In this document: piece by piece, positions 2,632-20,173 of the stretch
Layout of the letters: every line of letters begins with the position of its first letter
Position numbering within the stretch: the stretch's first letter is position 1
From: a bacterium
Lineage (GTDB): Bacteria > Electryoneota > JAOADG01
Reading direction: 5' to 3'
NCBI GenBank assembly: GCA_963681965.1
Contig: OY820579.1
Location: forward strand, 1,600,001 to 1,664,000
Length of the DNA stretch: 64,000 bases
The notes under the pieces: model-generated
Told to the model about the DNA's origin: nothing
Database searches by the model: none
The model's input: only the letters and a program-made list of their open reading frames with translations
Made by a program: the position numbers and the translations under genes

Positions 2632-3008
2632 TACAAATTTCCTATAAGCCTCCCCGCGTTGAACGCGCTCTTCTGGTTCCAGTAGGAACGTTAGTCGGCG
2701 ATACCTTATCGATAATTAACCAATCTTCATAAATCCCGGTATGATGTCCTCCGAGAAAATTTCCGATTACAGCATATCAAATTGTCGCGTCGACAAATAA
2801 AGAGTTAAATCAAAAGCGAGAGAGTAAAGGGACCGACTAGGTTACAGTGTTTGAACGGCGGTCCAATCCGAACAAAACAATACAAGTTATAACTATTCTG
2901 TGAGAAAATGCAATCTTTCTAGATTGAAAATTGACACACTCTCTGAGTACCAATAAACAGTATGTTCTTAATTTACTAGAACTTCGCGTTTGAAAGACAA
3001 TAAAATGC

Positions 3009-3878
3009 TTAGTTATTAATATTCAATGAATTAATAAATTCACTCGGAATTGGCACTTTGTTACCCGAGAAGTCGGTTGCCACGTGGACGCTACTTGCCG
3101 TCGCACAAACCTCGCTTTGTTCGTCAAGAATACGATAGCCGTAGGTCATTGAACTTGCTCCAATCCGGATAATTTCCAGCTCGATTGTTACCGATTGACT
3201 GGTTTGGAGCGGTCTCAAAAAGTCCCCTTCCCAATGGACGACGGGAAGTCCCCATTTGCGTTCTTGCAGCATTTTTCCAATTGAAAATTGTATACTCGAG
3301 AGCCACTCTTCATTCACCCGATGGCAGATTCGAAATAGGTTCGCGTTGAAAATAATTCCCGCAGCATCGGTATCATCCAGATGAATCGTCTCGTTCTTTC
3401 GAAAGACTACCCGCGAGTTGGTTTTGGGTTCCGGTCGAATGCCATTGATCCAATTTTTCAAGAACCGTAAACCCTTACTGTAACTTGCAATACCATTGCC
3501 TTTAAAGGTTGCCACACAGACATCGGTTAGATATGAAGTGCGTCGAAAGAAATCGCGATTGGAAGGATCGGTCAGGTGAACTTCAACGACCGGATAGGAT
3601 ACTGCTTTAATCGTATCGTGCAGCGACACGCTGGTGTGAGTTAGACCACCAGCGTTGAGCAAGACACCGTCAGTTTCGGAGCGGATTGCTTGGAGTTGAT
3701 CGATTAGTTGACCTTCATGATTCGATTGAAAATGTTTCAACCGGAGATCGAGTGATTTTGCTTCTTCGTCCAACTGATTTTGCAGTTCGGTAAGCGACAT
3801 CGTACCGTACAGCTCGGGTTCGCGTTCTCCTAATAAATTCAGATTGGGACCTTGAATAATCCAAATTGTCGCAACCAT
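3009..3878 (-). CDS. aroQ: Type II 3-dehydroquinate dehydratase fused to a hotdog-fold thioesterase (probable DHNA-CoA thioesterase)
   Basis: N-terminal GPNLNLLGEREPELYG, QSNHEG and THTSV motifs of AroQ. C-terminal ~135 aa has DTDAAG..F......CH...EEWL and LPVVH..DF, like 4HBT/cyanobacterial Slr0204-type thioesterases. One uninterrupted ORF. Confidence 0.88.
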   Translation of the reverse strand: MVATIWIIQGPNLNLLGEREPELYGTMSLTELQNQLDEEAKSLDLRLKHFQSNHEGQLIDQLQAIRSETDGVLLNAGGLTHTSVSLHDTIKAVSYPVVEVHLTDPSNRDFFRRTSYLTDVCVATFKGNGIASYSKGLRFLKNWINGIRPEPKTNSRVVFRKNETIHLDDTDAAGIIFNANLFRICHRVNEEWLSSIQFSIGKMLQERKWGLPVVHWEGDFLRPLQTSQSVTIELEIIRIGASSMTYGYRILDEQSEVCATASSVHVATDFSGNKVPIPSEFINSLNINN

Positions 3879-4972
3879 CAGGCAACCCTCCCTTTGTGAA
3901 GATGGGTAATGCGGCTAGTGATAACTTCAGTTATTATCTCGCTTCCAATATCCTGTTGGATAATGGGTTTTCCAATTCCTTCAAGCATAATCCAGCGATT
4001 GGATCCTGCACTACGTTTTTTATCGTGACTCAAATATGAAATAATCGTCTCAGGATTGACAATCGCCTTCGGTACCGGGATCTTTCTAATTGCTTCGTTG
4101 ATCGTTTTCCAGGTTGGTTCTGGTAAAAGGTTCAGTTTCAGTGAGAGATCGATTGCGACACCCAATCCCCAAAGAACAGCTTCGCCATGACGGAAGTAAT
4201 TATACCCGGTGGCAGCCTCCAAAGCGTGTCCGGAAGTGTGACCGAGATTCAAGTATAGCCGTTCGCCACGGTCGTACGGATCTGAATTTACTACCGCAAT
4301 TTTTTTGGATATACATTCATGAACAATGTCGATGGTTGGAGGTACAGAAATGTCTGATTCAATCACCTTGGTCCACATCGCATCGCCGATTAATAAACTG
4401 TATTTGTAAATTTCACCCCAGCCGCAATACAATTCCCGATTGGGTAAGGTTCGAATATAACCGGCATCGACGATAACATGTTCCGGAGGATGAAATGCAC
4501 CGATTAAGTTTTTTCCAGCACTGAGATTTACTCCTGTTTTTCCACCGATCGCTGCATCTACCGATCCGATTATGGTTGTTGGTACTGCGATCCAGTGGAT
4601 TCCACGAAAAACGATCGCCGCAAGAAATCCTACGATGTCGCTGATTACACCACCACCTAACGCAATGAGACACGAATTTCGATCAATCCCTTTGTGAATG
4701 CACTGCTCGGCGACACGTTCGATCGTTTGAAGGCTTTTTTGTTCTTCACCTGCAGGAAGTACAATCACTGCGGATATCTCTGACCTGACTTCGTTCCAGA
4801 TCGCTTCGTAATGACTCCAGACGTTGGAATCGGTGATGATAATCGATCGTTGAGCGGAATCTATCAGCGAACAGACAGAGCTGGGAAAATTTCCATCGGC
4901 AAAATGGATTTCAGTGGAGTGAGTTCCGAAAGTGAACGTTTGAGTTAAGGTTTGTAACATCGTATACGTCAC
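3878..4972 (-). CDS. aroB: 3-dehydroquinate synthase
   Basis: GEEQKS, ALGGGVISD, VPTT...VDAAIGGKTGVN, KNLIGAF and LNLGHT motifs. Confidence 0.96.
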   Translation of the reverse strand: MTYTMLQTLTQTFTFGTHSTEIHFADGNFPSSVCSLIDSAQRSIIITDSNVWSHYEAIWNEVRSEISAVIVLPAGEEQKSLQTIERVAEQCIHKGIDRNSCLIALGGGVISDIVGFLAAIVFRGIHWIAVPTTIIGSVDAAIGGKTGVNLSAGKNLIGAFHPPEHVIVDAGYIRTLPNRELYCGWGEIYKYSLLIGDAMWTKVIESDISVPPTIDIVHECISKKIAVVNSDPYDRGERLYLNLGHTSGHALEAATGYNYFRHGEAVLWGLGVAIDLSLKLNLLPEPTWKTINEAIRKIPVPKAIVNPETIISYLSHDKKRSAGSNRWIMLEGIGKPIIQQDIGSEIITEVITSRITHLHKGRVA

Positions 4973-5529
4973 TGTTGAGTTTTGGCGGTATTGATTAATG
5001 CAATGAGACGCTCGGTGGTAATCGTTACCGGTTCGTCTTCATCGATGAATATGATCGCATCGCAACCTTGATAAACACGGTCGCGTTCTTCACGAAGCTT
5101 GCGAATTAGAGATTCGACTTCTGCCGGCGAATTACAGCCAGCGATCAAGGGGCGTTTGGGATTGTTGCCGACTCGTTTACATAAAACTGGAATAGATACA
5201 TCGAGGAAGATGGAGAATCCGGCTCGATGAATCTCCGTTAATGCCCCTTTGATCGTTAATGTTCCCCCACCCAGTGCGACGACTCCTTTTGGTTCTCTAC
5301 ACACTAATTGAAGTTCTTCCCACTCTCGCTGGCGAAAACCTATCCAGCCCTGTTCTTGGACTTGTTGTGCGATAGGTATCCCGTACTTCGTCTCCAATCG
5401 TTGGTCAAGATCGTACACCGGAAGCCGGAAGGCGTAGCCGATCCGACGAGCCAGTGACGATTTTCCACATCCCATTAATCCCGCGAGGAAAATGTGTCCC
5501 AACGATTCCCCCAAGCAGCAAAATGACAT
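4969..5529 (-). CDS. aroK: Shikimate kinase (start uncertain)
   Basis: IFLAGLMGCGKS P-loop, DLD, FR..E, VALGGG and RPL motifs. Confidence 0.93.
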   Translation of the reverse strand: MSFCCLGESLGHIFLAGLMGCGKSSLARRIGYAFRLPVYDLDQRLETKYGIPIAQQVQEQGWIGFRQREWEELQLVCREPKGVVALGGGTLTIKGALTEIHRAGFSIFLDVSIPVLCKRVGNNPKRPLIAGCNSPAEVESLIRKLREERDRVYQGCDAIIFIDEDEPVTITTERLIALINTAKTQQ

Positions 5530-6641
5530 TTCATCTCGGCGATACTATCGCCACCGATTTTCGCAAGGAGTTCTTTAGCTAGAACAAATGCTACTACATG
5601 CTCGCCGACAATGCTGGCTGCAGGAACGGCACAAACATCTGACCGTTCTTTCAACGCTTGAGTTGGTTCATTGGTCGCTAAATCGATCGATCGTAACGAT
5701 TGACGCAGCGATGCCAATGGTTTCATCATTGCGCGGATGATAATCAGTTCACCGTTACTAATACCCCCCTCGATGCCACCGGAGTGATTGCTGGTTCGGT
5801 GAATTGAACCAGTTTCAGTCAAATTAAGTTGATCGTGGAATTGCGCACCGGACAGACACCCATCTTCAATATCGCCGATTGAAACCGATTTAATTGCCGG
5901 AATCGACATCACTGCTTGAGCCAATTGCCCGTCAAGACGGCGATCAGCCTGAACATAGGATCCCAAACCGATTGGAACATTAATGGAGATCACCTCAAAT
6001 TCACCACCTAATGTATCGCCTTCTAGTTTGCATTTATCGATTTCTTGAATCATCTGGTGCTCGGCATTCGGGTCGATGCATCGCACTAATGAACCGTCGG
6101 CAATGGAGTTTATCACATCGTAGTTTGTCAATTTAGTTGTAGCAGATACTTTACCAATTCTCCGAACATGCGATGCGATTCTAATATCGAATTGCGACAA
6201 TAATTCCCGGCAAATCGCTCCAATTGCCACTCGCATTGCTGTTTCGCGAGCACTTGCTCGCTCAATCACAGTCCGAATGTCGGTTAAATGATATTTAAGA
6301 ACTCCGGCGTAATCAGCATGACCCGGACGCGGCATGGTTAATGGTTCGCTTGGGTTTGATACCGGTGTGATTGATGTTTTCTCGATCCAATTTTCCCAAT
6401 CAAGATTCTTAATCAACAGACTGATCGGTGCACCTGTTGTGATACCATATCGAATGCCACTCAGTATTTCAACTTGATCGTGTTCGATTTTCATTCGATC
6501 GCCGCGACCATATCCCATTTGTCTTCGTTGAAGTTGCCGATCGATCAATTCAGAACTGAGTTCAAGACCTGCAGGAATACCATCGAGAATTCCTGTAAGA
6601 GCCTGACCATGCGACTCGCCGGCTGTCAGATAGCGCAGCAT
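5475..6641 (-). CDS. aroC: Chorismate synthase
   Basis: MLRYLTAGESHG, PRPGHAD, ERASARETA, NHSGGIEGGISNG and ERSDVCAVP motifs. Confidence 0.97.
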   Translation of the reverse strand: MLRYLTAGESHGQALTGILDGIPAGLELSSELIDRQLQRRQMGYGRGDRMKIEHDQVEILSGIRYGITTGAPISLLIKNLDWENWIEKTSITPVSNPSEPLTMPRPGHADYAGVLKYHLTDIRTVIERASARETAMRVAIGAICRELLSQFDIRIASHVRRIGKVSATTKLTNYDVINSIADGSLVRCIDPNAEHQMIQEIDKCKLEGDTLGGEFEVISINVPIGLGSYVQADRRLDGQLAQAVMSIPAIKSVSIGDIEDGCLSGAQFHDQLNLTETGSIHRTSNHSGGIEGGISNGELIIIRAMMKPLASLRQSLRSIDLATNEPTQALKERSDVCAVPAASIVGEHVVAFVLAKELLAKIGGDSIAEMKCHFAAWGNRWDTFSSRD

Positions 6642-7444
6642 AGTTCGATCTCCAATTGTCTTAAACTTTCCTCAGGGAATGCCCGATCTGTCCAAATGGA
6701 GAAGGATGACATTGCCTGACCCAATAAAATTCGCAATCCGTTTTGTACGGTCGATCCCGATTCAATCAATAGTTTCATGACCGACGTCATTATCGGTGAA
6801 TAAATTGATTCAAGATAATAACTTCCCGGTAGTGGAAGTAGATTGAATGGGAATGGAGATGATACTCCATCAGAGCCAATCGGTGTTGCATTAACAACTA
6901 ACGAAGAATTTTGCCCGAGTGCAACGCGATCGACCCAAGAATGAATAGACAAGAGGTCTGGATATCTCGCGCAGAGACCTTTCCACTCCGGTAGAAAATG
7001 TCTCATCGATACGGCAACATGCCAATTATTTTGCAACAATTCCAATGTCGAGGCACGCGCAAATCCTCCACCACCAAGAATCAATGCATTGCGATCAATG
7101 GTTGATAAATTCCATGGTTTAAGTGCAAATTGAAGTCCGAAACCATCTGTCGAATCAGCGATCCAACCTTTCTCGCCTCGAATGAGTGTATTGGCAGATT
7201 GAATTATTTTTACCGTCGAACTGATATTTTCGCAATATTGAATTACCGCATATTTGAATGGATTCGTTATATTCAATCCTTGAAAACCATCGCGGAAGAG
7301 TTGATCAAGCGTTTCATGCAAATCTTCACTTCGGGTTGGAAGTAATTGATAACTTCCTTCCATCCGAAGTTCATCGAGTGCTGCTAGATGTATCTTTGGA
7401 GAAAGCGAGTAGTCAATCTGCCCACCGATGAGTCCCAGTTTCAT
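6626..7444 (-). CDS. aroE: Shikimate dehydrogenase
   Basis: SLSP.IH, GLNITNPFK, ANT, TDGFG, LGGGGFARA and VNATPIG motifs. Confidence 0.93.
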   Translation of the reverse strand: MKLGLIGGQIDYSLSPKIHLAALDELRMEGSYQLLPTRSEDLHETLDQLFRDGFQGLNITNPFKYAVIQYCENISSTVKIIQSANTLIRGEKGWIADSTDGFGLQFALKPWNLSTIDRNALILGGGGFARASTLELLQNNWHVAVSMRHFLPEWKGLCARYPDLLSIHSWVDRVALGQNSSLVVNATPIGSDGVSSPFPFNLLPLPGSYYLESIYSPIMTSVMKLLIESGSTVQNGLRILLGQAMSSFSIWTDRAFPEESLRQLEIELCCAI

Positions 7445-8733
7445 GAAACAACTCCCAGCTTTTCGGAAAGCTCTTCGAAAAATCCGGGATAGGACACATC
7501 AACCGCTGTCGCATTAACAAGTGTGGTTTCACCTTTTGCGACTAAGCTGGCAACAGCAAAACTCATGGCTATTCGGTGATCATTCATGCAATCGATTTTT
7601 GAACCATGTAACCGTTTCGTAGCTTCGAAGGCGAATCCGTCGTTGTACTCTTCACACGAAACCCCCATTGCACGCAACCCAGCTACTAATGCCAGAATCC
7701 GATCGCACTCTTTTAATCGCAATTCCTGTGCATCTCGTAATTGAAATCGTCCTCCCGATCCGGCGGCAACGATTGCCAAGATCGGCAATTCGTCAATCAA
7801 ATACGGTACGGATCCGCCGTTGATATCAAAAGAAAAGTGTCCACCGGAGGTAACAGAGATTATTCCGATCGGTTCACCATTACTTGTTGATTGTTGTTCG
7901 ATCGTGATCTTTGCGCCGGCAAGCATTAGTTGTCGATAAAATTCTATTCGACTGGGATTGATCCCGACCGATTCTAGAACAAGTGCCGAGCCCGGCACCA
8001 AGAGCGCGATCGTTGTCCAAAATGCACCACTGGAAGGATCACCCGGAATAATCCCGTCGGGTATTGGAATTGTTGTATCGCGAGACACACGCCACGAAGT
8101 GACATTATCAACTTGAGTCGGAGTTAGTTGTAATAACCGCTCAGTGTGATCGCGTGAGGGAACGGGTTCAATGATCTCGGTATAACCATCTGCATGCAAT
8201 CCGGCAAATAGCAATGCGGATTTTAATTGGGCACTGGCAATCGGCATCCGGTAACGGATCCCATGCAAAAGTGATGGATGAATATTGACTGGTAGTTTCC
8301 CATCCGTGGTCGTAATTTGCGCCCCCATTAGACGTAATGGGTCCGCGATCCGGTCCATTGGACGATTACTCAATGATTGGTCGCCAGTCAATTCAGCAGT
8401 AACCGATTTACCAGCTAGAACACCCATCAACAGACGACAAGTCGTACCGGAATTAGCACAATTAATTGGGACTGTCGGTTGGTGTTTACCTATCGGACCA
8501 ATGATTCTGAAAGTAGAATGATATTGATCGATCTGAATGCAATCTGTCGATACACTTAATCTTTCCAAAGCAAACAAGGTTGAATAGAGATCGGCACCAC
8601 AGCGATAGATGGTTAGGTCGATAGGTTGAGAAAATAAACTCGCTAAGAGCAGGCGACGGTGTGCAATGGATTTATCGGAGGGGAGTTCGATCGAACAGAG
8701 AAGTGGGTGTTTCGCTGCCGATATTTTGATCAT
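7441..8733 (-). CDS. aroA: EPSP synthase (class II-like)
   Basis: [46 protein letters not shown] and DHRIAM motifs. Confidence 0.96.
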
Positions 8734-9602
8734 GTGCTGGGAAACGCTCGATCAATCGCAGTTGCAATCCGCGACAGATCGTAGCTTAAAGACTTCAATT
8801 GAGTAGGATAGAGTGACTGATCGCCGTCGGAAAGTGCACAATCGGGATTGGTATGGACCTCAATCATCACGCCATCGGCACCAGCAGCAATTGCAGCACG
8901 TGCCATCGGTGAAACCAATTCGCGATCGCCGGTTGCATGACTCGGATCGGCTATGATTGGAAATGAGCAGATTTGTTTCAATTTGGGAATGATTGTTAAA
9001 TCGAACGTACTCCGCGAGTAATCGACAAATGTGCGAATTCCGCGCTCACAAACCACAATCTGATCGTTCCCTTCGCCAGTGATGTATTCGATCGCACCTA
9101 ATAATTCGGTTAAAGTCGCTGCCATGCCACGTTTGAGTAACACCGGTTTGCGAGATCTACCTACCCGCCTTAGTAAGCTAAAATTCTGCATGTTACGCGA
9201 TCCGATTTGCAACATGTCAACGACAGGTTCCAACTCGTTGACTTGGGCAATATCCATGACTTCGGTTACCATCGGCAGATTTTCGTGATCCGCCGCTTCC
9301 CGTAGCCATTTGATCGCTTCAATACCAATCCCCTGAAACGCTGCTGGTGAAGTACGTGGTTTAAAGGCACCGCCGCGTAAAATCGTACCGCCCGATGCCC
9401 TGACAAGTTTTGCAACCGCTCTAATCTGATCGAATGATTCAACTGCACAGGGACCGGCAATCATTACTAGCCGATTGCCCCCAATTAACACATTTCCCAC
9501 AGGAATGGGTTTGGTCGCGATGCACTGGTTAGACGTGTCGGTATATCCCGACTCTAATGGCGGGACAACAGAATTGCTGGGAAGTTTATTCGATTCAGGC
9601 AT
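8730..9602 (-). CDS. aroF: DAHP synthase, class I-beta
   Basis: [43 protein letters not shown] and DPSH motifs. Confidence 0.95.
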
Positions 9603-9733
9603 AGTATGATAGATTGATAATGATAATAAATTCTCGAGTTTCGGATTATTACCGAAACCTTACAATTTCGCTATGGATTGATACGAATGCAAGGAGGTAC
9701 CGTTGGAGATTATATCTTGTTTCCGACGGACAA

Positions 9734-11185
9734 TTACAGCTGACTTCGAGTAAATATCTCGAACAGGCGTTCTCGATTCGGTTTTCCGTTGGGTAAGGTA
9801 GGTATCTCATCAAGTAATAACCAATATTTCGGGATTTTAAAGCCGGATAATTTTCCATGTAAGAATTGCTTGAGATCGTCGATTGATTGGGTTTGAGTCA
9901 GTTCAATTGCAGCTACGACAGCTTCTCCCCAATCTTTGTCCGGAACTCCGAAAACGACTGCTAAGCGAATTAGACGATTGGTCATTAAGATTTGTTCAAT
10001 TTCACTAGGGCTGATGTTTTCACCACCACTAACTATCCGGTCAACTTGTCGTCCAGCAACGATGAGTGTGCCTTGGGGAGTTAAATATCCCAGATCACCG
10101 GTTCTGATCCAACCATCCTTGAAGGTTTTTTTCGATTCTAGCTCATTGCCTTCGTATCCTATCGCAGCAGCAGGGCTCTTGACATAGATTTCGCCCGAAA
10201 ATCCGGGTTGCAATACTTCGTCAGATTCATTCCGAATTTCTACAGTAACACCAGGAAGAGGTAGACCGGCACTTCTCCGGATCGATAATTCCGAATTTGG
10301 TGGTACAGTGGTAATCTGTGACCCTGCCTCACTCATTCCATAACTAGCCACAAATCTTGGATCTCGCTCTAGCAATTCAGTTGGGATTGATCCTCCTCCA
10401 ATCAATACAAGCTGTACACAATCAGGTAGCGGCTGATTATTTCTGAAAGCTAGCAATCGTTGAAGTGTGGTTGGAACCAAAGACAGATGACTGATTGTGC
10501 CACTTTCAATTACATCGTTGACTTCAGTCGCCTCGAATTTATCCAATAGATGAAGCGATAAACCGGTCATCATCGATTTCATAAAACTACTAATTCCACC
10601 AATGTGGAATAATGGTAAAGTGATAAGCCATCGGTTAGTATTACTGAATAATAGGTGTTGCTCCGACATTTTCGCATGTGCCTCTAACGCTTGCCATGGA
10701 AGTACAACACGTTTCGGAATTCCGCTCGAACCGGAAGTGAAAATCACTAATGAAGAAGCTAGATATTGATTATTATACAAGGTTTTCTGACACTGTTCCC
10801 AGAACGCATCGAAAATGAATTCATCGATCTTAAATCGATACTCACATTCTAATTCTGTAAATTGTAGGTTATTATGTTCATCGAATAATATCAAATCGAA
10901 TGGACAATCACCTAATGCCCTTGCTTGCTCTTCGGTCGTCCAGTATGTTGGAAGTAGGATCGTAGTACAACCACTCTTGAGTGCTGCCCCAACAGCGATT
11001 AAATATAAATCCGATGAACTGGAAAGAATCCCAACACGAAACGAATGACCCTGAGAAAACGCTAGAATTCGTTGTGAGACATTGTCAATAATTTCTGCAA
11101 TCTCGAAGAAATCATATTGACGATCATGCCACAATAGGGAGGGTGAATTAGGTTGATTTGACTGATGAAGATCAAGCGGAAACAT
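9734..11185 (-). CDS. menE: O-succinylbenzoate-CoA ligase
   Basis: AMP-binding motifs IFTSGSSGIPK, LPLFHIGG, SYGMSE, TGDLG and SGGENI; lies in the men cluster. Confidence 0.9.
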   Translation of the reverse strand: MFPLDLHQSNQPNSPSLLWHDRQYDFFEIAEIIDNVSQRILAFSQGHSFRVGILSSSSDLYLIAVGAALKSGCTTILLPTYWTTEEQARALGDCPFDLILFDEHNNLQFTELECEYRFKIDEFIFDAFWEQCQKTLYNNQYLASSLVIFTSGSSGIPKRVVLPWQALEAHAKMSEQHLLFSNTNRWLITLPLFHIGGISSFMKSMMTGLSLHLLDKFEATEVNDVIESGTISHLSLVPTTLQRLLAFRNNQPLPDCVQLVLIGGGSIPTELLERDPRFVASYGMSEAGSQITTVPPNSELSIRRSAGLPLPGVTVEIRNESDEVLQPGFSGEIYVKSPAAAIGYEGNELESKKTFKDGWIRTGDLGYLTPQGTLIVAGRQVDRIVSGGENISPSEIEQILMTNRLIRLAVVFGVPDKDWGEAVVAAIELTQTQSIDDLKQFLHGKLSGFKIPKYWLLLDEIPTLPNGKPNRERLFEIFTRSQL

Positions 11186-12287
11186 CGTTGATTCGCTTCC
11201 AGGAAAAGTCGATCGACGATTTCATCTGAAAGCCCATCCCATTGGAAATAGGATCGAAAACAATGACACCTCGTTGAACATGATGATCCGCAATTGTATC
11301 CGATTCGAGTAGGCGATTTGTCGATATTCCATGTGCAAAATGGTTGTTCGGAAGCGATGCTGCTAGATGGAAATAAGCTGCGGCTGCAATTCCGGAATCC
11401 ATTGATGATGAGAATACTGCTTTGATTTCATTCTGTTCGGCTAGGAGGGCAAGATCGCGTGACCGCAATATGCCACCTAGAGTCATTGGTTTGAGAACAA
11501 ATGAAACGTTTGGATGAATTGTAATCCATTTTCGACATTGAGTTTCGCTCGATACCGATTCATCGAGTGCAATTGAAACTGGAACATCGCGTATTCGATT
11601 TAAAAAGAGTTCAATATCGTAATCTGCAACTGGTTGTTCGATGTATTCAATTCGCAAATCGGCGAGTCTAATTGTTCGATCGATCGCATCTTCGAGTGTC
11701 CAGCTTCCGTTGATATCGAAGCGGAATTGAGTATCTGGAAAAGACTTAATTAACTCGGTAAGTTTCTTGTAATCGGATAGAAAATCGGTACTGGTTTTTA
11801 ATTTGAATGTGCGATAACCAAGGTGTCGATAGGAATCGACAGTCTCCAACACGTTCTGATCGGTGTTCGATAACAATTGTGTAACAGGTATGATCGTATT
11901 GAGTTCACTGTTGAGGAGCATTCCGACTGGCAACTTTAAAAAATTACCAATTCGGTCGAGAACTGCGCTTTCTAGCGCAAACCGAAGTGCAGGGCGAAAA
12001 TCCAAAACCGTATCAAGTGCCGACATGAATTCCGGTACCGATTCAAGTTCGTCGGGAAACGGAATTTCTTTGATAAAAGGTTGTAGATCATTCACTCCTT
12101 TTACAGTTTCGGCGAGTGTTTCAGTACCCCAATCTGGTAACGGTGCCGCTTCGCCAATTCCGAAAGTCCCATTGTTATCACTGACTCGAAGCAAAACAAT
12201 ATTGCGTTCGATCCATGCCGATCGAATAGCATCAACGCGATGTTGAAATCGGAGTACGATAGGTTGCCACTGAAGCCGAGTTATCAT
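11172..12287 (-). CDS. menC: O-succinylbenzoate synthase
   Basis: Enolase-superfamily motifs GIGEAAPL, FKLK, RFDING.W, YIEQP, ALDES and LKPM.LGG; men context. Confidence 0.88.
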   Translation of the reverse strand: MITRLQWQPIVLRFQHRVDAIRSAWIERNIVLLRVSDNNGTFGIGEAAPLPDWGTETLAETVKGVNDLQPFIKEIPFPDELESVPEFMSALDTVLDFRPALRFALESAVLDRIGNFLKLPVGMLLNSELNTIIPVTQLLSNTDQNVLETVDSYRHLGYRTFKLKTSTDFLSDYKKLTELIKSFPDTQFRFDINGSWTLEDAIDRTIRLADLRIEYIEQPVADYDIELFLNRIRDVPVSIALDESVSSETQCRKWITIHPNVSFVLKPMTLGGILRSRDLALLAEQNEIKAVFSSSMDSGIAAAAYFHLAASLPNNHFAHGISTNRLLESDTIADHHVQRGVIVFDPISNGMGFQMKSSIDFSWKRINDVSA

Positions 12288-13162
12288 AGCGCGATCGCAA
12301 GTCCCAGCGATAATCCGAAGATGAGTTGCAATCGAGCAGTGAGGATGAGTGCTTGAATCAAGTCTTCGGGAATTGTTGTTCGAAAAACAATACTGATCGG
12401 TTTAACTGAAAAATAAAGTACCGGAAGAAGCCAATAGATCCGGTGCAACTGGTTAACTTGGTGCAATATAAGTATAGCAATAAAGAAACTGAATACAATG
12501 CTCAAAAAAAACTCAATTCGTCCAAATCGATATCCAAATCTTGCCGGAAGAGTTAATTTATTGGCTTCTCGATCAGTTGGGATGTCGCGAATGTTATTCA
12601 CACAAATTAAACTGATTGACAATAATCCCGGTGCAACTCCTGCAAGCATTGCCAGTTGTGACCACTCCAGGGTGAGTAAATAACTGGTTCCCGATACAGC
12701 AATGATACCGAAAAATCCGATCAGAAAGAATTCACTTAGCCCTTTGTAGGCGATTGGAAAAGGTCCTGCTGTATAAAATACGCCACATAAAATTGATGTA
12801 GATCCGATAATAACAATACTCCAACCTCCTCGAAGTGCGAGGGGGATTCCCAATAACAGAGCAAGCGCAAAAACCAAAAGAAATCCATTTCGAACAGTTC
12901 TTGGTGGTATCAGACCCGATTGCGTTACTCGCATCGGACCAGAGCGCTTCACATCGGCACCTTTGCGATAATCGTAGTAGTCGTTTGCGATATTCGTTCC
13001 GACTTGGATCAAAACTGCCGCAAATAAAATCGGAATCACCCACCAACCGTTGAAATTGGGGTGTCGAAGTGAAATTGCAAATCCAATCCACACCGGAAGA
13101 ATCGAAGCGATTAACGTTTTCGGACGGGCAGCAAGCAACCAATTGTGAATATTAGTTGTCAC
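12284..13162 (-). CDS. menA: DHNA polyprenyltransferase
   Basis: WLLAARPKTL, NIANDYYDY.KGAD and VNNIRDIPTD...K.TL motifs; hydrophobic. Confidence 0.95.
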   Translation of the reverse strand: MTTNIHNWLLAARPKTLIASILPVWIGFAISLRHPNFNGWWVIPILFAAVLIQVGTNIANDYYDYRKGADVKRSGPMRVTQSGLIPPRTVRNGFLLVFALALLLGIPLALRGGWSIVIIGSTSILCGVFYTAGPFPIAYKGLSEFFLIGFFGIIAVSGTSYLLTLEWSQLAMLAGVAPGLLSISLICVNNIRDIPTDREANKLTLPARFGYRFGRIEFFLSIVFSFFIAILILHQVNQLHRIYWLLPVLYFSVKPISIVFRTTIPEDLIQALILTARLQLIFGLSLGLAIAL

Positions 13163-13989
13163 TACGGTAACCGCGGGTACTTGCCGAAATCGGGTTTACG
13201 TTTTTCTAGATAAGCTTTTTTACCTTCTTGACCTTCTTCGCTCATGTAATACAACAGCGTTGTATTACCCGCGAGTTCCTGGATCCCGGCTTCGCCATCA
13301 GTTTCGGCATTGAATGCGGCTTTCAGGCAACGCAATGCCATAGGTGAATGCGCAAGCATTTCCCGACACCACTCAATGGTGGTCGTTTCAAGTTGATCCA
13401 AGGGCACGACCGTATTCACTAGTCCCATATCCAATGCTTCTTGAGCAGTATATTGACGACAGAGGAACCAGATCTCTTTCGCTTTTTTATGACCCACTAT
13501 TCGAGCCAAGTAGCCGGCACCGAAACCGCCATCGAAACTCCCGACTTTCGGACCAGTCTGACCAAATCGCGCATTGTCGGCTGCAATCGTAAGATCGCAT
13601 ACGATATGTAAAACATGACCGCCACCGATCGCGTAACCTGCGACCATCGCTACCACTGGCTTTGGTAGGCTGCGAATCTGTTTTTGCAAGTCGAGTACAT
13701 TCAAACGAGGTACTCCGCTGGCATCGACATACCCTTTATCGCCGCGAATACGTTGATCCCCACCACTACAAAACGCCAAATCGCCTGCGCCGGTTAAGAT
13801 GGCAACGCCAATTTCGGGATCCTCGCGTACATCCAGAAAGGCAATTTGTAGCTCTGCCAACGTTTGTGGACGAAACGCATTGCGAACTTCGGGACGATTA
13901 ATGGTGATTTTGGCAATACCATCCAGCTTTTCATAAATGATATCGGTAAAAGTCCCGGCTGATTTCCAAGGATATTTAGATTGTGTCAT
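13162..13989 (-). CDS. menB: 1,4-dihydroxy-2-naphthoyl-CoA synthase
   Basis: [27 protein letters not shown] and [12 protein letters not shown] motifs. Confidence 0.98.
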
Positions 13990-14819
13990 TTCGAACCTAT
14001 TTGAGTATTCGTTAAAAATGTGAACATGATCTGCATCAATGCATCAGGTTGTTCCGTCGGTGCATCATGACCGCAATTAGGGATCAGTTCCAATCTCGAA
14101 TTCGGTATATATTGTACGTAATTTTTTATCGCATTGGCATATTTCAAATCATCTTTTCCAGCGATAAATAGCATGGGCGTGTCTAATTTTGACAAATGAT
14201 CCAGCAAATACTCCTGTTTTCCAACCGAAAGTGTTCGTAGGCTCTTTGCCAACTGCTTGGGATTCTGAGCCATCCAGCTATCGCGAAGAGTGGATAATTG
14301 ATCTATCGGCAGGCTCTGTCGGTGTTTAAAAATAGGTAAGTTCTCCCAATACTCTGAAAACCATTCCATTCCTCGATTTTCAATCCATTTTGCCAACTGC
14401 TCATCAGATTGGTCTCGTTCTAATCGGTCGTCTAGGTCTGAAATTCCTGCTGATCCGCTGATTAAAATTGCAGATTGGATCGGGAGATGAGAGTGCGCTA
14501 ATAAATGCATTGCAAAACGAGCACCGAGTGAATATCCAACTAACTCTATTGGTTGATCGACAAGATCCCGAAGCTGATTGGAAAGATCGTCGACAACCTG
14601 ATCCCAAGTCAAATTACATTTTTCTGGTAATACCGACTTACCGTGACCGGGCAGATCTGGTGTAAGACAATAGAACGTTTGCGAAAGTAACTCCAGAAAT
14701 GGCGACCAGTACCGATGAGTTCCAGCAAAACCGTGGAGTAGAAGTAGCGGGGGATTTTTTTTCTCACCGCAATCGACTAGAAACCAATCGATACCAGTTT
14801 TTGTGGAATGAAGGATCAT
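13986..14819 (-). CDS. menH: SHCHC synthase (alpha/beta hydrolase)
   Basis: LHGF.G, DLPGHG, GYSLGAR and R...D..LA motifs; located between menD and menB. Confidence 0.9.
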
Positions 14820-16582
14820 CGGTTGACAGTTTTTCGCAATTTCTGAAGGAAAGCTGTTACTTCGCTTTCAGTTTCAGATCGGTCGGAGTATATCTCAAAC
14901 ACTCGGGGAAAAGGAATCTCAACCAGATCATCAAGCACTTCCATCAGATTGGTATAGGATTTAATTCGATAAAAATAGACTCCTAAACCGTGACAAACAT
15001 GTTTAAAATCGATCTGTTGTTGAATTCCCTGTATTGTTTCGAAACTGTCAACATCGGTTGACGATTCGATATCGGATGTTTTCAATGACTTTCGAGCAGG
15101 TAAATAGTGGAAAATTCCTCCGCCACCATTGTGACTAAGGAGGATTGTGATTGGTAACTTTAATCGAGAAATTAACTCAAGCGCATTGAGATTGTGGAAG
15201 AAAGCCAAATCACCGATCACGATGTATGTTGGCATATCCGAAGCGATTGCGATTCCAGTTGCAGTTGAGAGGATTCCGTCAATACCGTTAGCGCCTTTGT
15301 TCGCAAAGAAGTGCGTAATGGGGTTGCCTTGCGAAAACCAGTCAGCATACCGAATGGACATCGAATTCGACAGAAAACAGTTGCTATCGCGAGTAGCATA
15401 ATCAATCATCGTTGGTGCGATAAATGCTTCCAGTGGTATATTCTCATCGATACTTTCTCGGTATACGATATCTTCTTGTATTGCGTCGATTCGTTCCCAC
15501 TCTCTAGTAGCGTCATGCTTGTATTCTTGTTGAGTCCGACCAATCAACTCGTCGATCACAGATCCGATAGGTCTATGAATCGTTAATGTCACAATTCGGT
15601 CGGGATCGATTGTCTGCGAATGAGACTGTATTCGAAAGCACGGACATTTCTGTGAAGCCATCCAATGGAACATCGGATTGGAAGTAGGATAATTGCCAAA
15701 CCAGAGGATGCAGTCGCTGTGAAGTGTCTCACTCGCTGCTCGAATAGCTAATACAGGATACTTCAACGATTTTGGTTTTCCTCGTAATCCCGAAACGATG
15801 TCAGCCAGAATTGGAGCATCGAATTTTTCAGCGAGCGAATTGATAAGAGTTCCATCAATATCCGTTTCGCAAGCATCGGGACCAGCGACGATTACGGGTT
15901 TTTCCGCTGATGTCAAGGCGTGAAGTAGTTGATCAATTGCCGATTCATCGATTTTTTCGGCAATCAATTGAACCGGGGCTAAATTCAAGATCGCTTTTTC
16001 AGCTTGATGCCACAGATTGACAATTTGCTCTGATTCAATACCAATCGGCTGTAACGGCTCTTCGAATGGACAATTGATATGAACCGGTGCGCGATTCAAA
16101 CCCATCGCACTCGAATAGCTTCTAATCGCAAGATCAATGATTTCTGTTACGGATTGTTGATCGGAAATTTCCGGTAAACTAGTCTCCAGTGACACGTAAC
16201 TACCGAAAATACCTGTTTGTTGAATCGTTTGCGGTGAGCCGCATTGTTGCATCGATTCCGGACGATCTGCCGTTAAGACGATCAAAGGTGTTCGACTGTA
16301 ATATGCCTCAACGATCCCCGGTAAATAATTGGCGACAGCAGTCCCGGAAGTGCAAATGAGAATCGCAGGTTTTCGCGAAGATTTTCCCATACCCACTGCC
16401 AGAAACGCCGCATTTCGCTCGTCGACTTCCACAATTGATTGCAATCCGGAAGTATGAATTGCACAGTGAGAAAGGGGAGTATTGCGGGAACCGGGAGAAA
16501 TGACTACAAATTCGCAACCAAGTTTCACCAAAGCTGAGAGTATCGTCTGAGCGCGTAGCCAGTTACGGTTCATTGGAATCAT
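14816..16582 (-). CDS. menD: SEPHCHC synthase
   Basis: ISPGSRNTPL, DERNAAF, ICTSGTAVAN, LTADRP, NKGANGIDG and GDLAF motifs. Start placed at the ATGA overlap with the menF stop. Confidence 0.95.
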   Translation of the reverse strand: MIPMNRNWLRAQTILSALVKLGCEFVVISPGSRNTPLSHCAIHTSGLQSIVEVDERNAAFLAVGMGKSSRKPAILICTSGTAVANYLPGIVEAYYSRTPLIVLTADRPESMQQCGSPQTIQQTGIFGSYVSLETSLPEISDQQSVTEIIDLAIRSYSSAMGLNRAPVHINCPFEEPLQPIGIESEQIVNLWHQAEKAILNLAPVQLIAEKIDESAIDQLLHALTSAEKPVIVAGPDACETDIDGTLINSLAEKFDAPILADIVSGLRGKPKSLKYPVLAIRAASETLHSDCILWFGNYPTSNPMFHWMASQKCPCFRIQSHSQTIDPDRIVTLTIHRPIGSVIDELIGRTQQEYKHDATREWERIDAIQEDIVYRESIDENIPLEAFIAPTMIDYATRDSNCFLSNSMSIRYADWFSQGNPITHFFANKGANGIDGILSTATGIAIASDMPTYIVIGDLAFFHNLNALELISRLKLPITILLSHNGGGGIFHYLPARKSLKTSDIESSTDVDSFETIQGIQQQIDFKHVCHGLGVYFYRIKSYTNLMEVLDDLVEIPFPRVFEIYSDRSETESEVTAFLQKLRKTVNR

Positions 16583-17844
16583 GATTCGTTCCCTTGGATT
16601 GCACGTTTCATCGTCTGCATTTTCCAGTTGGTTTCTTCCCACTCATTATCAGGATTCGATTTATCGACAATTCCAACACCAGCATAAATTCTTGCCTGAT
16701 CGCCAGTAATCATTGCCGATCGAATTCCGACAGCAAATTCCGCTTCTTCATGACTAACCCATCCGACGACACCACTATAATACCCACGATCTTGTTTCTC
16801 CAGCACTGATATTTGATCAAGTGCTATCGATCGAGGATCGCCTCCGATAGCTGGTGTTGGGTGGAGCGCAGCAAGAATTTGCTCTAGTCCCGTATCGGAT
16901 CGCAAATATCCTTGAATCTGGCTGTAGAGATGTTGAACTGTGGCGAATTTCCGTATCGAAGGTTCGGGTTTCGGTGCAACATTGCTACACAACCCGCGAA
17001 ATGAACTTATCAACCAATCAACGACAACTTCGTGTTCCCAGCGGTCTTTATTCGAATGAAATAAAAGATCGGCAAATTTCCGATCTTCTTCGCCGTTGTT
17101 TCCTCGCGGTCTAGTTCCAGCGAGTGCATCGGCTGAGAGGAGATTGTTCGATACCCGACAAAGTTGTTCGGGAGATGCCCCAATAAAGCTGCCTTCTTCG
17201 GTAGGAAATTGAAATCGAAAACTGCTGGAATTCTCAGCTACCATATTCGAATAGATTTGCGAAAGATCCGAATCAGATGGAGAAGGAATCTCATCGAAAC
17301 GCGCTAACACCATTTTCCGGATTTTTCCGGCGGTGATCCATGTTTGGATAGTATTGATGCACTGACGCCAAGTGGTTTGATCCATCGGTGTTACTGCTGG
17401 AGCAGTCGTAGTCCGGGAGTGAGATATTTGAGAGATGCTTGCGATGTCGCTCAACAGCATTGCATTCGGATCATGCAGGCAAAATTGTCGTGAACCGGTT
17501 AATATCGCTTCAAATTGGTTCTGTTTGTGCAAAATAGTCCATTTCGGGAGCAGCCACCGGTTTCGATGCTTCCACGTTTCGGTTCGGAAAGGCAATGCGG
17601 CAAAACACCGCAGGTCGCTGATCGGTTCAATAGAATTTGACTGCAGAGTTCGTAAATAGGATTGCGCATCGTCCGCTGACCGAAAGCTGTTCGCTTCATC
17701 ATATCCGATCCATTCGGTATCAGAATCGCGGCCGATCCAGCGGGTGAGTTCAGCCGTTTTCGTATTCAGCAACGAATCGATTAACTTGGCATTCGGAATA
17801 AACCGAACGGTCGTGAGCGGGTGGGTTTCGGATTCGGCAAACAT
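16579..17844 (-). CDS. menF: Isochorismate synthase
   Basis: K.VLAR, FIGASPE, ALAGT, K...EH..VV, LHPTPAIGG, RGYYSG and YAGVGIV motifs. Confidence 0.92.
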   Translation of the reverse strand: MFAESETHPLTTVRFIPNAKLIDSLLNTKTAELTRWIGRDSDTEWIGYDEANSFRSADDAQSYLRTLQSNSIEPISDLRCFAALPFRTETWKHRNRWLLPKWTILHKQNQFEAILTGSRQFCLHDPNAMLLSDIASISQISHSRTTTAPAVTPMDQTTWRQCINTIQTWITAGKIRKMVLARFDEIPSPSDSDLSQIYSNMVAENSSSFRFQFPTEEGSFIGASPEQLCRVSNNLLSADALAGTRPRGNNGEEDRKFADLLFHSNKDRWEHEVVVDWLISSFRGLCSNVAPKPEPSIRKFATVQHLYSQIQGYLRSDTGLEQILAALHPTPAIGGDPRSIALDQISVLEKQDRGYYSGVVGWVSHEEAEFAVGIRSAMITGDQARIYAGVGIVDKSNPDNEWEETNWKMQTMKRAIQGNES

Positions 17845-17845
17845 T

Positions 17846-17854
17846 TGCTATAAT
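17846..17854 (+). promoter_or_regulatory. Extended -10 promoter element (TGnTATAAT), probably for menG
   Basis: TGCTATAAT ends 42 nt upstream of the GTG at 17897. Confidence 0.55.
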
Positions 17855-17896
17855 TTGGATTGGAAACGAGCCAGAAACAAACGGAAAGGTCGAAAA

Positions 17897-18601
17897 GTGG
17901 CAAAAGTCGCCGAAGGCAGGGAACAGGAAGCAGTTGGACAGATGTTCGATCGGATTTCTCGCCGCTACGACCTTGCCAACCGGTTTCTTTCGATTGGAAT
18001 TGACCAGCTCTGGCGCAGAAAAACCCTCAAGAGCCTAGGGGATTGGTCGGGAAAAATCCATTTGGATGTCGCTTCCGGTACAGGAGATCTTGTACTGATG
18101 AGTGGTCGGTTGAAACATCCCCCCGCGCATCGGATAGCTTTAGATTACTCGCGGAATATGATGCTTTATGGTCAAACCCGCTATCCCGGCGAGCCGATCG
18201 AGTGGGTCCAAGCTTCTGCCGATGCACTTCCCTTACAGGATCGATCCGTCGATATCGTCACAATTGCATTTGGCATCCGGAATGTCGCCAAATATCCCGA
18301 AGCGCTACGTGAATTTCACCGGGTACTCCGTCCAGACGGAAAAGTCGCAGTGCTCGAATTCAGTATGCCGCAAAATCCGATTTGGCATGCGATTTACAGC
18401 TGGTATTTCCGAAATATTCTCCCTCGGATAGGGGGAATGCTCAGCGGTAATTTCGACGCCTATCGTTATCTGCCCGCATCGGTATCGCGGTTCCCTTACG
18501 GCGAAAGCTTTGCAAACTTGCTTACGGAAGCTGGTTTTGGCAAGGTGACTTTTGAACCGCTGACGGGTGGTATCGCTACACTCTATTTGGCTGAAAAGTA
18601 A
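17897..18601 (+). CDS. menG: Demethylmenaquinone methyltransferase (UbiE/MenG)
   Basis: MFDRIS.RYDL.N..LS.G.D..WR, LDVASGTGD, IAFGIRNV and AYRYLP.S motifs. Start set at GTG 17897 to avoid overlap with menF. Confidence 0.93.
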   Translation: MAKVAEGREQEAVGQMFDRISRRYDLANRFLSIGIDQLWRRKTLKSLGDWSGKIHLDVASGTGDLVLMSGRLKHPPAHRIALDYSRNMMLYGQTRYPGEPIEWVQASADALPLQDRSVDIVTIAFGIRNVAKYPEALREFHRVLRPDGKVAVLEFSMPQNPIWHAIYSWYFRNILPRIGGMLSGNFDAYRYLPASVSRFPYGESFANLLTEAGFGKVTFEPLTGGIATLYLAEK

Positions 18602-18748
18602 TTTGTACTCCTCAAACTGCCACAAAACATCGTTCCCTAGCCCGGAAAATCTCCGTATATTGTGCCATTACAAATCAATTCATATCGGCGATTCATTGCG
18701 GTCGCTTGGCGAACCGACTCCAATCGTTTAACTCAAACAGGTCTACCC

Positions 18749-19705
18749 ATGAAGAATATCCTTATTACCGGCGTTTGCGGTCAAATCGGCACCGAACTGA
18801 TCCGGAAATTGCGTATGGAAATTCCTAACGCGCTGATTCTAGCCACTGACATCAAAGATCCCCCGAAGTCAGTCCATTCGTTTGCCACATTCAAGACCTT
18901 GGATGTGACCAATCCGACCGAAATCGGGCAGATGGTGCGTGACAATCAGATCGACACGGTGTTCCATCTGGCGGCGCTACTGTCAGCGACCGGCGAACGG
19001 AATCCGGCGCTGGCATGGCAAGTCAATATGACGTCATTCTTCGAATTGCTGGAATTGTCACGGAACAATGGCGTGAAAATGGTGATCATGCCATCTTCGA
19101 TCGGTGCCTTCGGACCGACTACTCCGCGCGACATGACGCCGAATCTGACAATCATGCGCCCGACCACGATGTACGGTATCACCAAGGTCACCGGCGAATT
19201 ATTGATGGAATACTATTCCCAGAAGTTCGGATTGGATTGTCGCTCGATGCGATTCCCCGGCATTATCAGCAATGAAACCGAACCGGGTGGCGGGACGACG
19301 GACTACGCGGTTGATTTCTATTACAAAGCGGTGGAAGGAAAGCCGGCAACCTGCTTCGTGAAGGAAGATACGGTTCTGCCATTCATGTATATGCCGGATG
19401 CAATCGATGTATTGTGGCAACTGGCGAATGCGGAAGCGGCACATCTGACGACCCGGACGTACAACGTGACGGCATTCAGCGCATCGGCGAAAGAGTTCGA
19501 GAATGCGATCAAGAAAGTTGTGCTCAGCTTTGCCGTGGAATATGTTCCGGACTACCGTCAGGCAATCGCGGACAGTTGGCCGCGCTCACTCGACGACTCG
19601 CAGGCGAAGAAGGACTGGGGCTGGAACCCGAAATTCGACTTGCACAAGATGTCGGTGGATATGATCAAGCATCTCCGGTTGCGGCTGGCATCGCACCACG
19701 AATAG
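18749..19705 (+). CDS. L-threonine 3-dehydrogenase, SDR/epimerase type
   Basis: ILITG..GQIG, HLAALLSATGE, PSSIGAFG, P.TMYGITK and PGGGTTDYAV motifs. Confidence 0.88.
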   Translation: MKNILITGVCGQIGTELIRKLRMEIPNALILATDIKDPPKSVHSFATFKTLDVTNPTEIGQMVRDNQIDTVFHLAALLSATGERNPALAWQVNMTSFFELLELSRNNGVKMVIMPSSIGAFGPTTPRDMTPNLTIMRPTTMYGITKVTGELLMEYYSQKFGLDCRSMRFPGIISNETEPGGGTTDYAVDFYYKAVEGKPATCFVKEDTVLPFMYMPDAIDVLWQLANAEAAHLTTRTYNVTAFSASAKEFENAIKKVVLSFAVEYVPDYRQAIADSWPRSLDDSQAKKDWGWNPKFDLHKMSVDMIKHLRLRLASHHE

Positions 19706-19727
19706 ATCGGTGGGACAGGTTAGTAAG

Positions 19728-19761
19728 AATGGCGGATTCGCAAGGATCCGTCATTTTTTTT
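19728..19761 (+). terminator. Intrinsic terminator
   Basis: AATGGCGGATTC-gcaa-GGATCCGTCATT followed by a T run. Confidence 0.8.
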
Positions 19762-20173
19762 AGTGGTGGTTAGGCTATGAAGTTTTGTAATTGCATCATT
19801 GCTTCGGTCATGTTCGGGTTAGTGCTGTGCCGCAATCAAAGAGCTACTGGAGGAAATGGAATATAATGCTAGGTTCTTGATATATAATTAATAAAAAGAT
19901 TGATCTTGCAGAAGATGAAATATAATTATCTCAGTCATCATTGAATGACTGTCGGTAATGAAATACCGTAAGTATTGCGCAGATCACATCTTCTTTTTTG
20001 AATTTGTATCTTATTGTATTGCAATAGCTTTTCGAATTTTGTACCGTGTGGAGTGTTTTCATCCCGTCAAATTATCCAACTTAGAAGCTATGTTTTAAGC
20101 CATTTATACTTTTCTAGATCCACTGATTCACATAAAGATTTAGAATTTTACAATCGAACTCGCCGGAGGTTGT

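Follow-up and report, generated by a model that had tools for sequence, protein, structure and literature searches.

A menaquinone and shikimate gene block in an Electryoneota bacterium as a probable family-specific operon fusion

Introduction

A block of 15 genes for the synthesis of chorismate and menaquinone occupies positions 3009–18601 of the window, by which we mean the whole stretch of 64,000 nucleotides that was analysed (positions 1,600,001–1,664,000 of contig OY820579.1, assembly GCA_963681965.1) from an uncultured bacterium of the phylum Electryoneota. Fourteen genes lie on the minus strand in the order menF-D-H-B-A-C-E, a 131-nt spacer, aroF-A-E-C-K-B and an aroQ::thioesterase fusion, and menG stands divergent to them, as given by the list of open reading frames (ORFs) and by profile searches. 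We consider it likely that the block is a vertically inherited, family-specific operon fusion, that the amino-acid branches of the shikimate pathway have been lost and that the remaining trunk serves menaquinone and p-aminobenzoate (pABA)/folate synthesis only. An initial annotation, made from the sequence of the window, had described the gene order, strand, overlaps and protein families, all of which were confirmed by the ORF coordinates and profile searches; its claim that the block covers every step from 3-deoxy-D-arabino-heptulosonate 7-phosphate (DAHP) to methylated menaquinone, except the polyprenyl synthase, is borne out by the gene assignments if the hotdog domain fused to AroQ is taken as the thioesterase of the men branch.

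The simplest history of the block has three steps. Two older operons, one for menaquinone (menF-D-H-B-A-C-E) and one for the complete shikimate pathway (aroF-A-E-C-K-B-Q), would have come first. An ancestor of the family would then have acquired the two in head-to-tail linkage, and the gene for the thioesterase acting on 1,4-dihydroxy-2-naphthoyl-CoA (DHNA-CoA) would have been relocated so that it now closes the block as a fusion with aroQ. Furthermore, the host lineage would have lost all branches to phenylalanine, tyrosine and tryptophan, and the shikimate trunk would now serve only menaquinone in cis and pABA/folate in trans through pabA-pabB::pabC.

Conservation of the block within its family and the phylum

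The other three species genomes available for the family have the identical 15-gene order, with protein identities of 25–89%. In a genome of a different genus (G002) the whole order lies on one contig (25–81% protein identity), and in a genome of the same genus (G001) and a further genome (G003) it was followed across contig breaks. MenB is 81–89% identical in the family relatives. A metagenome contig of 668 kb is contiguous from menB to aroQ::thioesterase, and it is assigned to a family member because its levels of identity to the window match those of G001. The stretch itself is present in sequencing runs from two studies and is therefore not an assembly artefact.

A comparison of synteny in relatives had been proposed in the initial annotation, and it also revealed the two halves as unlinked operons in a second family of the phylum (f6). 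In two genomes of this family (G008 and G013; loci L116–L119), aroF-A-E-C-K-B-Q and menF-D-H-B-A-C-E have the same internal orders but lie on different contigs, and aroC and menD are on different contigs in all 22 f6 genomes that have both. The two families thus share the internal orders of both operons and the same thioesterase family beside the men genes. They differ in that the f6 operons are unlinked, that aroQ is fused to aroB rather than to a thioesterase and that a gene for a TrkH cation transporter lies inside the men operon. The AroB::AroQ fusion is a single protein of 531 residues (L116:8336-9931 in G013, with an equivalent in L118 of G008). The TrkH gene is located between menB and menA in G013 (L117:10503-11867), where G008 has a gap of ~3 kb.

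Beyond the phylum, none of 79 aroF loci had men genes other than trpE/pabB-like matches, and none had this order of aro genes. Among 80 metagenome aroQ loci the supercluster occurred in one, which is itself a family member. In a quick tree of AroF, both the family and f6 formed clades, with values of 99 and 98, respectively, in the Shimodaira–Hasegawa-like approximate likelihood-ratio test (SH-aLRT).

A single shikimate pathway without amino-acid branches

The host genome is a single contig of 4,244,867 bases with a completeness of 99.91%. When the 15 proteins were compared with it by tblastn, no second aroA, aroE, aroC, aroK, aroB or aroQ was found; aroF has a paralogue with 31.6% identity, and no type II DAHP synthase was found in the genome. 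Six-frame profile searches of the genome detected no chorismate mutase (CM_2 and CM_1), prephenate dehydratase (PDT), prephenate dehydrogenase (PDH_N), TrpB, TrpC (indole-glycerol-phosphate synthase, IGPS), MqnA of the futalosine route or chorismate lyase UbiC. Every absent marker had positive controls in well-known reference genomes. The amino-acid-branch controls were positive in 13–14 of 14 reference genomes, with CM_1 in three; CM_1 covers the one control genome missed by CM_2, and the two together account for all 14. The genome therefore has the features of an aromatic amino-acid auxotroph, with neither mutase nor prephenate nor tryptophan synthase genes. Since the block holds the sole shikimate genes and no amino-acid branch genes occur in so complete a genome, the organism is very probably auxotrophic for phenylalanine, tyrosine and tryptophan, as had been suggested at the outset.

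Only two chorismate-binding enzymes were found in the genome, MenF and PabB::PabC. The latter has 597 residues and its gene, preceded by pabA, lies at ~0.44 Mb; pabA-pabB::pabC is conserved in all four family genomes, and FolP is present in the host. Judged by this gene content, chorismate is predicted to feed menaquinone and pABA/folate. The earlier description of the pathway as dedicated to quinone synthesis consequently holds in part: the aro set is the only one and the amino-acid branches are missing, but pabA-pabB::pabC is a second consumer of chorismate. The shikimate pathway appears to be kept mainly for menaquinone. As two polyprenyl synthase genes lie outside the block, at ~1.54 Mb and ~0.41 Mb, the prenyl donor would be supplied from elsewhere in the genome.

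A divergent TrpF-like ORF is found directly downstream of pabB::pabC (G000:C1 ~438800-439453; L001:195-848, minus strand). It matches PF00697 with 72.6 bits and stays under the cut-offs of the NCBIfam models, in a genome that has no TrpB, TrpC or TrpE. This ORF was considered as part of a conserved pab cluster and rejected, being absent from the neighbourhood of pabBC in the three other family genomes.

The pattern across the phylum was examined in 79 species genomes from nine families, none of the others being labelled as the same order or class as the window's family. PDT was found in none of the 79. AroC is present in 34 genomes (4/4 in the window's own family, 24/24 in f6, 3/6 in f9 and 3/16 in f3), MenD in 26 (own family 4/4, f6 22/24) and TrpB, at E ≤ 1e-80, in 16 (f6 11/24, f9 3/6, f3 2/16, own family 0/4). 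All 26 MenD genomes and all 16 TrpB genomes have AroC. Conversely, MenD, TrpB or both accompany AroC in 31 of its 34 genomes; the three exceptions are 80–90% complete. AroC is thus retained almost only where MenD or TrpB is retained, and the trunk is kept where a chorismate-derived product is kept. Dedicated use alone does not force fusion, because in 11 f6 genomes with MenD and without TrpB the men and aro operons are still unlinked. AroC is also absent from 45 of the 79 genomes. The distribution of these markers suggests that dependence on external aromatic amino acids may be phylum-wide. One genus of f3 has an aro-trp cluster without men genes (L120; G010:C4:84000-103999), and its AroF clusters with a sequence from Myxococcota (SH-aLRT 98) rather than with those of its own phylum; lateral acquisition of this cluster is possible.

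The AroQ::thioesterase fusion

The last gene of the minus-strand series encodes a protein of 289 residues in which a type II dehydroquinase (residues 1–145) is followed by a hotdog thioesterase (residues ~155–285). In profile searches the hotdog half matched PF13279 (56.8 bits) and PF03061 (38.9 bits). Its residues 159–280 have their best match among all solved structures in 4K00 (E = 4.7e-13; the next thioesterase, 1.9e-8), which is Slr0204 of Synechocystis and was named 1,4-dihydroxy-2-naphthoyl-CoA hydrolase by its depositors. The acidic DTDxxG segment is aligned between the two, as DDTDAAG in the fusion and ADTDGAG in 4K00, and the C-terminal half therefore combines the hotdog fold with the N-terminal acidic motif that characterize Slr0204-type 4HBT thioesterases. 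The likeness extends over a full-length alignment of residues 159–280. Slr0204 is a stand-alone protein of 141 residues, whereas the predicted thioesterase is here the C-terminal half of a type II dehydroquinase.

In f6 the corresponding protein is a stand-alone homologue of 150 residues (PF13279) whose gene is convergent to menE; a stand-alone thioesterase gene lies at most 14 kb from menD in seven of the eight f6 genomes examined. Because 4K00 is the best match and the f6 homologue lies near the men genes, we infer that the hotdog domain hydrolyses DHNA-CoA, the MenI step. If the domain is read as MenI, the block would therefore encode 16 reactions, from phosphoenolpyruvate and erythrose 4-phosphate to menaquinone, and would cover all steps except the prenyl donor.

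All four genomes of the family have the fusion. It is apparently rare, since both domains occur in seven of the best 120 of 5822 matches in a collection of 5.8 billion proteins; a query of a protein atlas with the fusion gave no usable match.

A DAHP synthase without its N-terminal domain

AroF has 290 residues and matches positions 66–335 of the 338 positions of NF006421, with the N-terminal 65 positions unmatched. The aroF ATG is preceded, at a distance of 18 codons, by a stop codon. The protein thus lacks the ~65–70 residues before the barrel that form the N-terminal domain of allosteric type I-beta DAHP synthases. The AroF homologues of G008 (f6, TrpB present) and of a Gemmatimonadota metagenome-assembled genome match NF006421 from position 1, that of G013 (f6, without TrpB) matches from position 56, and most of the 79 AroF homologues from other phyla are encoded by ORFs of ~335–338 residues. 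The N-terminal domain of the Thermotoga enzyme mediates feedback by aromatic amino acids. By analogy, AroF of the block would be free of such feedback and flux control would lie in the men branch; the loss of the domain would fit a pathway that no longer makes aromatic amino acids. The spacer upstream of aroF was considered as a decayed remnant of the AroF N-terminus and rejected, as a tblastn search with the N-terminal parts of two full-length homologues yielded only matches with E ≥ 0.1.

Expression of the block and alternative readings

Several observations weigh against the proposed reading. In the AroF quick tree the family, f6 and other phyla meet in a single unresolved polytomy, and common descent of the aro operon therefore rests on the shared gene order. 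MenE, AroE and AroK do not reach the equivalog cut-offs of NCBIfam. The spacer persists in all four family genomes and could hold an internal promoter. Owing to the pABA branch, the trunk is not exclusive to the quinone, and the divergent TrpF-like ORF adjoins pabBC. The absences are based on hidden Markov models, and neither non-homologous replacements nor arylpyruvate routes were searched for. Finally, the GC content at third codon positions (GC3) is below the genome mean in all 14 co-directional genes (3rd–35th percentile), a mild but consistent bias.

We propose that the 14 co-directional genes would be translationally coupled and expressed either all together or in two units under tight coordination. 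Alternatively, the men and aro genes may be two adjacent, independent operons, the former transcribed from the menF/menG region and the latter from a promoter of their own in the spacer. This arrangement is possible but clearly the less likely one, and it disputes single-unit expression only, as it fits both the gene content and the descent proposed here. It draws on the facts that the spacer is the sole junction without overlap, that the other three family genomes have a spacer of 87–183 nt in the corresponding position, that the two same-genus genomes, and only these, have a block of 33 nt of it in common, and that the two halves stand as separate operons in f6. Nevertheless, a simple scan of the spacer found neither a sigma-70-like promoter nor a terminator-like site, although the lineage may use another promoter type. 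The adjacency and orientation of men and aro are kept across three genera at 25–89% protein identity, and a functional tie between the halves is provided by the predicted men-branch thioesterase, which is fused to aroQ where the aro half ends. The 33-nt block and a 7-bp hairpin in the spacer are each unique in the genome, and the idea that the hairpin is a REP repeat was therefore rejected. An Rfam scan of positions 2400–20300 of the window gave no match at E ≤ 1, and a conserved RNA structure in the spacer was rejected because, outside the same-genus pair, the four spacers could be aligned only poorly and no common fold was seen.

A more far-reaching proposal, which we regard as improbable, is that the 14 genes form one coupled transcript and that their products make up a physical assembly line from shikimate to menaquinone, nucleated by AroQ::thioesterase and with flux controlled at the quinone end. 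Such a complex could be nucleated by the fusion, in which both partners, the dehydroquinase and the hotdog domain, are oligomeric; with the amino-acid-sensing domain of the DAHP synthase lost, control of flux would be left to the quinone end alone. If true, it would be the first example in nature of a whole trunk pathway that was absorbed, genetically and physically, into one cofactor branch after the loss of all amino-acid branches.

It is very unlikely that the aromatic amino acids are still made by unrecognized, non-homologous enzymes and that the aro genes are housekeeping genes lying next to men by chance. This view gains from the fact that the absences rest on profile searches, and from the PF00697 match of the TrpF-like ORF. 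Against it, six independent families for three branches are absent from an almost complete single-contig genome with positive controls, PDT is missing throughout the phylum, nearly all AroC genomes keep MenD or TrpB and the DAHP synthase has no N-terminal domain.

The block had also been described initially as more AT-rich than rpsA, and possibly as a portable 'vitamin K2 cassette'. The numbers behind the first statement are correct (45.3% GC for the block, 51.2% for rpsA, 47.4% for the genome), but it is rpsA that is the outlier, whose GC3 ranks at the 94th percentile among 2223 long ORFs. The block is ordinary: its GC content lies at the 16th percentile of 15.6-kb windows of the genome, and the codon-usage distances of its genes range from the 8th to the 94th percentile of ORFs of similar length. 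In the suggested comparison of GC3 and codon usage, the block was unremarkable apart from the mild GC3 bias. No tRNA gene lies at positions 1–30000 of the window (integrases and flanking direct repeats were not searched for), and the block is bordered by a gene for a ribosomal protein and by a conserved one for a short-chain dehydrogenase/reductase (SDR). The combination of atypical composition, borders with mobility genes, tRNA genes or repeats, and patchy presence that marks a genomic island was accordingly not seen, within the same limits on integrases and direct repeats. Horizontal acquisition as a cassette is hardly credible and largely refuted: the below-average GC3 speaks for it, as does the known mobility of Men clusters, a lateral transfer having been proposed for the seven-gene cluster of Cyanidiophytina plastids (PMC6189191), but the order is the same in all four family genomes with a divergence typical of old vertical descent, f6 has the sub-operons with the same internal order, and neither the aroF loci of other phyla nor the metagenome aroQ loci revealed a copy outside the family.

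Gene assignments and neighbouring genes

Twelve of the 15 block proteins pass the curated NCBIfam cut-off for the named enzyme; for MenE, AroE and AroK the named enzyme is the top match and the Pfam cut-offs are passed. On the minus strand, the men half begins with the isochorismate synthase gene menF at 16579–17844 (TIGR00543, 293.9 bits against a cut-off of 224.75; PF00425). It is followed by menD at 14816–16642, for 2-succinyl-5-enolpyruvyl-6-hydroxy-3-cyclohexene-1-carboxylate (SEPHCHC) synthase (TIGR00173, 376.8 against 244.2), menH at 13986–14819, for 2-succinyl-6-hydroxy-2,4-cyclohexadiene-1-carboxylate (SHCHC) synthase (TIGR03695, 225.2 against 208.55), and the DHNA-CoA synthase gene menB at 13162–13989 (NF005637, 497.3 against 380). 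The DHNA polyprenyltransferase gene menA lies at 12284–13162 (NF004751, 268.5 against 264; PF01040, UbiA), the o-succinylbenzoate (OSB) synthase gene menC at 11172–12287 (TIGR01927, 138.3 against 130.55) and the OSB-CoA ligase gene menE at 9734–11185 (NF002966, 295 bits). The top matches of MenE are OSB-CoA ligase models, of which TIGR01923 gives 290.9 bits, below its cut-off of 330.15, and its identity is therefore assigned by best match plus context. With seven of the eight men enzymes above the NCBIfam cut-offs and MenE below, the set corresponds to the OSB pathway of menaquinone synthesis.

After the 131-nt spacer at 9603–9733, the aro half starts with the type I-beta DAHP synthase gene aroF at 8730–9602 (NF006421, 379.1 against 335). 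The 5-enolpyruvylshikimate 3-phosphate (EPSP) synthase gene aroA is found at 7441–8733 (TIGR01356, 313.9 against 287.25), the shikimate dehydrogenase gene aroE at 6626–7444 (TIGR00507, 146.3 bits, below the cut-off of 200.2; PF08501, 71.6 against 27) and the single-copy chorismate synthase gene aroC at 5475–6641 (NF003793, 423.4 against 321). These are followed by the shikimate kinase gene aroK at 4969–5529 (PF01202, 107.1 against 22.1), for which the top NCBIfam matches are shikimate kinase models, all under their cut-offs. The 3-dehydroquinate synthase gene aroB lies at 3878–4972 (TIGR01357, 308.3 against 305) and the aroQ::thioesterase fusion at 3009–3878 (PF01220 with PF13279/PF03061). DAHP synthase, AroB, AroQ, AroE, AroK, AroA and AroC, and thus all seven shikimate steps, are encoded within the block.

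The ORF coordinates overlap at 12 of the 13 same-strand junctions, by 1–64 nt each. For the two long ones, menF/menD (64 nt) and aroC/aroK (55 nt), the start codons may have been called too far upstream. In particular, the true menD start may lie downstream of 16642, because the match to the MenD family begins only at residue 31. On the plus strand, the demethylmenaquinone methyltransferase gene menG/ubiE is located at 17897–18601 (NF001244, 244.3 against 216). Its ORF is listed from 17744, and the match to the MenG family begins only at residue 59–64; the GTG at 17897 or the ATG at 17942 is the likelier start. With either of these, the divergent spacer between menF and menG is 52–97 nt.

Between the fusion gene and rpsA lies an intergenic stretch of 377 nt (2632–3008) with a terminator-like hairpin at 2796–2782 on the minus strand; rpsA likewise follows the fusion gene in the same-genus genome (L115). 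On the other side, 61 nt downstream of menG, the SDR gene at 18662–19705 (plus strand) encodes a member of the NAD-dependent epimerase/dehydratase family whose top NCBIfam match is D-erythronate dehydrogenase (122 bits against a cut-off of 325). It keeps this position in the three other family genomes at 78–82% identity, and only menB of the cluster is more conserved; the gene may be part of a menG operon. An ORF of 1947 residues (20174–26017, plus strand) lies just past the cluster.

Discussion

The kinds of enzyme in the block and the process of operon fusion are already known. Classical men operons have the orders menFDHBCE in E. coli and menFDHBEC in B. subtilis; they share with the block the OSB route, the enzyme families and the leading menF-D-H-B. 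The block differs from them in that menA lies inside, the thioesterase is fused to a shikimate enzyme and seven shikimate genes follow. The aro-trp supraoperon of B. subtilis (aroF-aroB-aroH-trpEDCFBA-hisC-tyrA-aroE) likewise merges shikimate trunk genes with the operon of one end-product branch. In that case the trunk is incomplete and the branch is that of tryptophan and tyrosine, whereas here the branch is that of menaquinone, all seven trunk steps are included and the genome has no amino-acid branches left. Chlamydia-type bacteria retain the shikimate pathway without phenylalanine or tyrosine synthesis and use chorismate for quinone and folate. Chlamydiae follow the futalosine route with dispersed genes, unlike the classical men route found here in fusion with the aro genes.

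The Men enzymes are prone to fusion, as in PHYLLO of plants. A compact men cluster with a thioesterase is also known from Cyanidiophytina plastids, in which the seven genes include that for DHNA-CoA thioesterase (PMC6189191). This cluster has no shikimate genes, and a lateral origin is proposed for it; the block described here would be vertical within its family.

Our literature search found no description of a joined men and aro cluster or of an AroQ–thioesterase fusion, which is not proof that none exists. What we regard as new is the supercluster of a complete trunk and its branch, together with the AroQ::thioesterase fusion, the shortened DAHP synthase and the setting across the phylum. 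The fusion provides independent support, of the Rosetta-stone type, for a Slr0204-type hotdog protein as the DHNA-CoA thioesterase of this group.

Reasons for the joint expression of trunk and branch may be found in other bacteria. According to one study, MenD is inhibited by DHNA there, a kinetic model of Lactococcus lactis predicts that chorismate supply limits DHNA production, and menaquinone production rises when chorismate and Men enzymes are overexpressed together (PMC12421875). Such inhibition of MenD and limitation by chorismate would favour joint expression of the two halves.

With its DAHP synthase devoid of the N-terminal domain, the 15.6-kb block may serve as a compact natural template for vitamin K2 engineering. 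The phylum-wide absence of PDT (0/79) predicts phylum-wide auxotrophy for phenylalanine, which bears on the culturing of these bacteria. For the biology of the group, the pattern shows what may become of a shared biosynthetic trunk once its main customers have been lost: it is kept together with the remaining chorismate products and, in one family, has in all likelihood been welded to the men genes.

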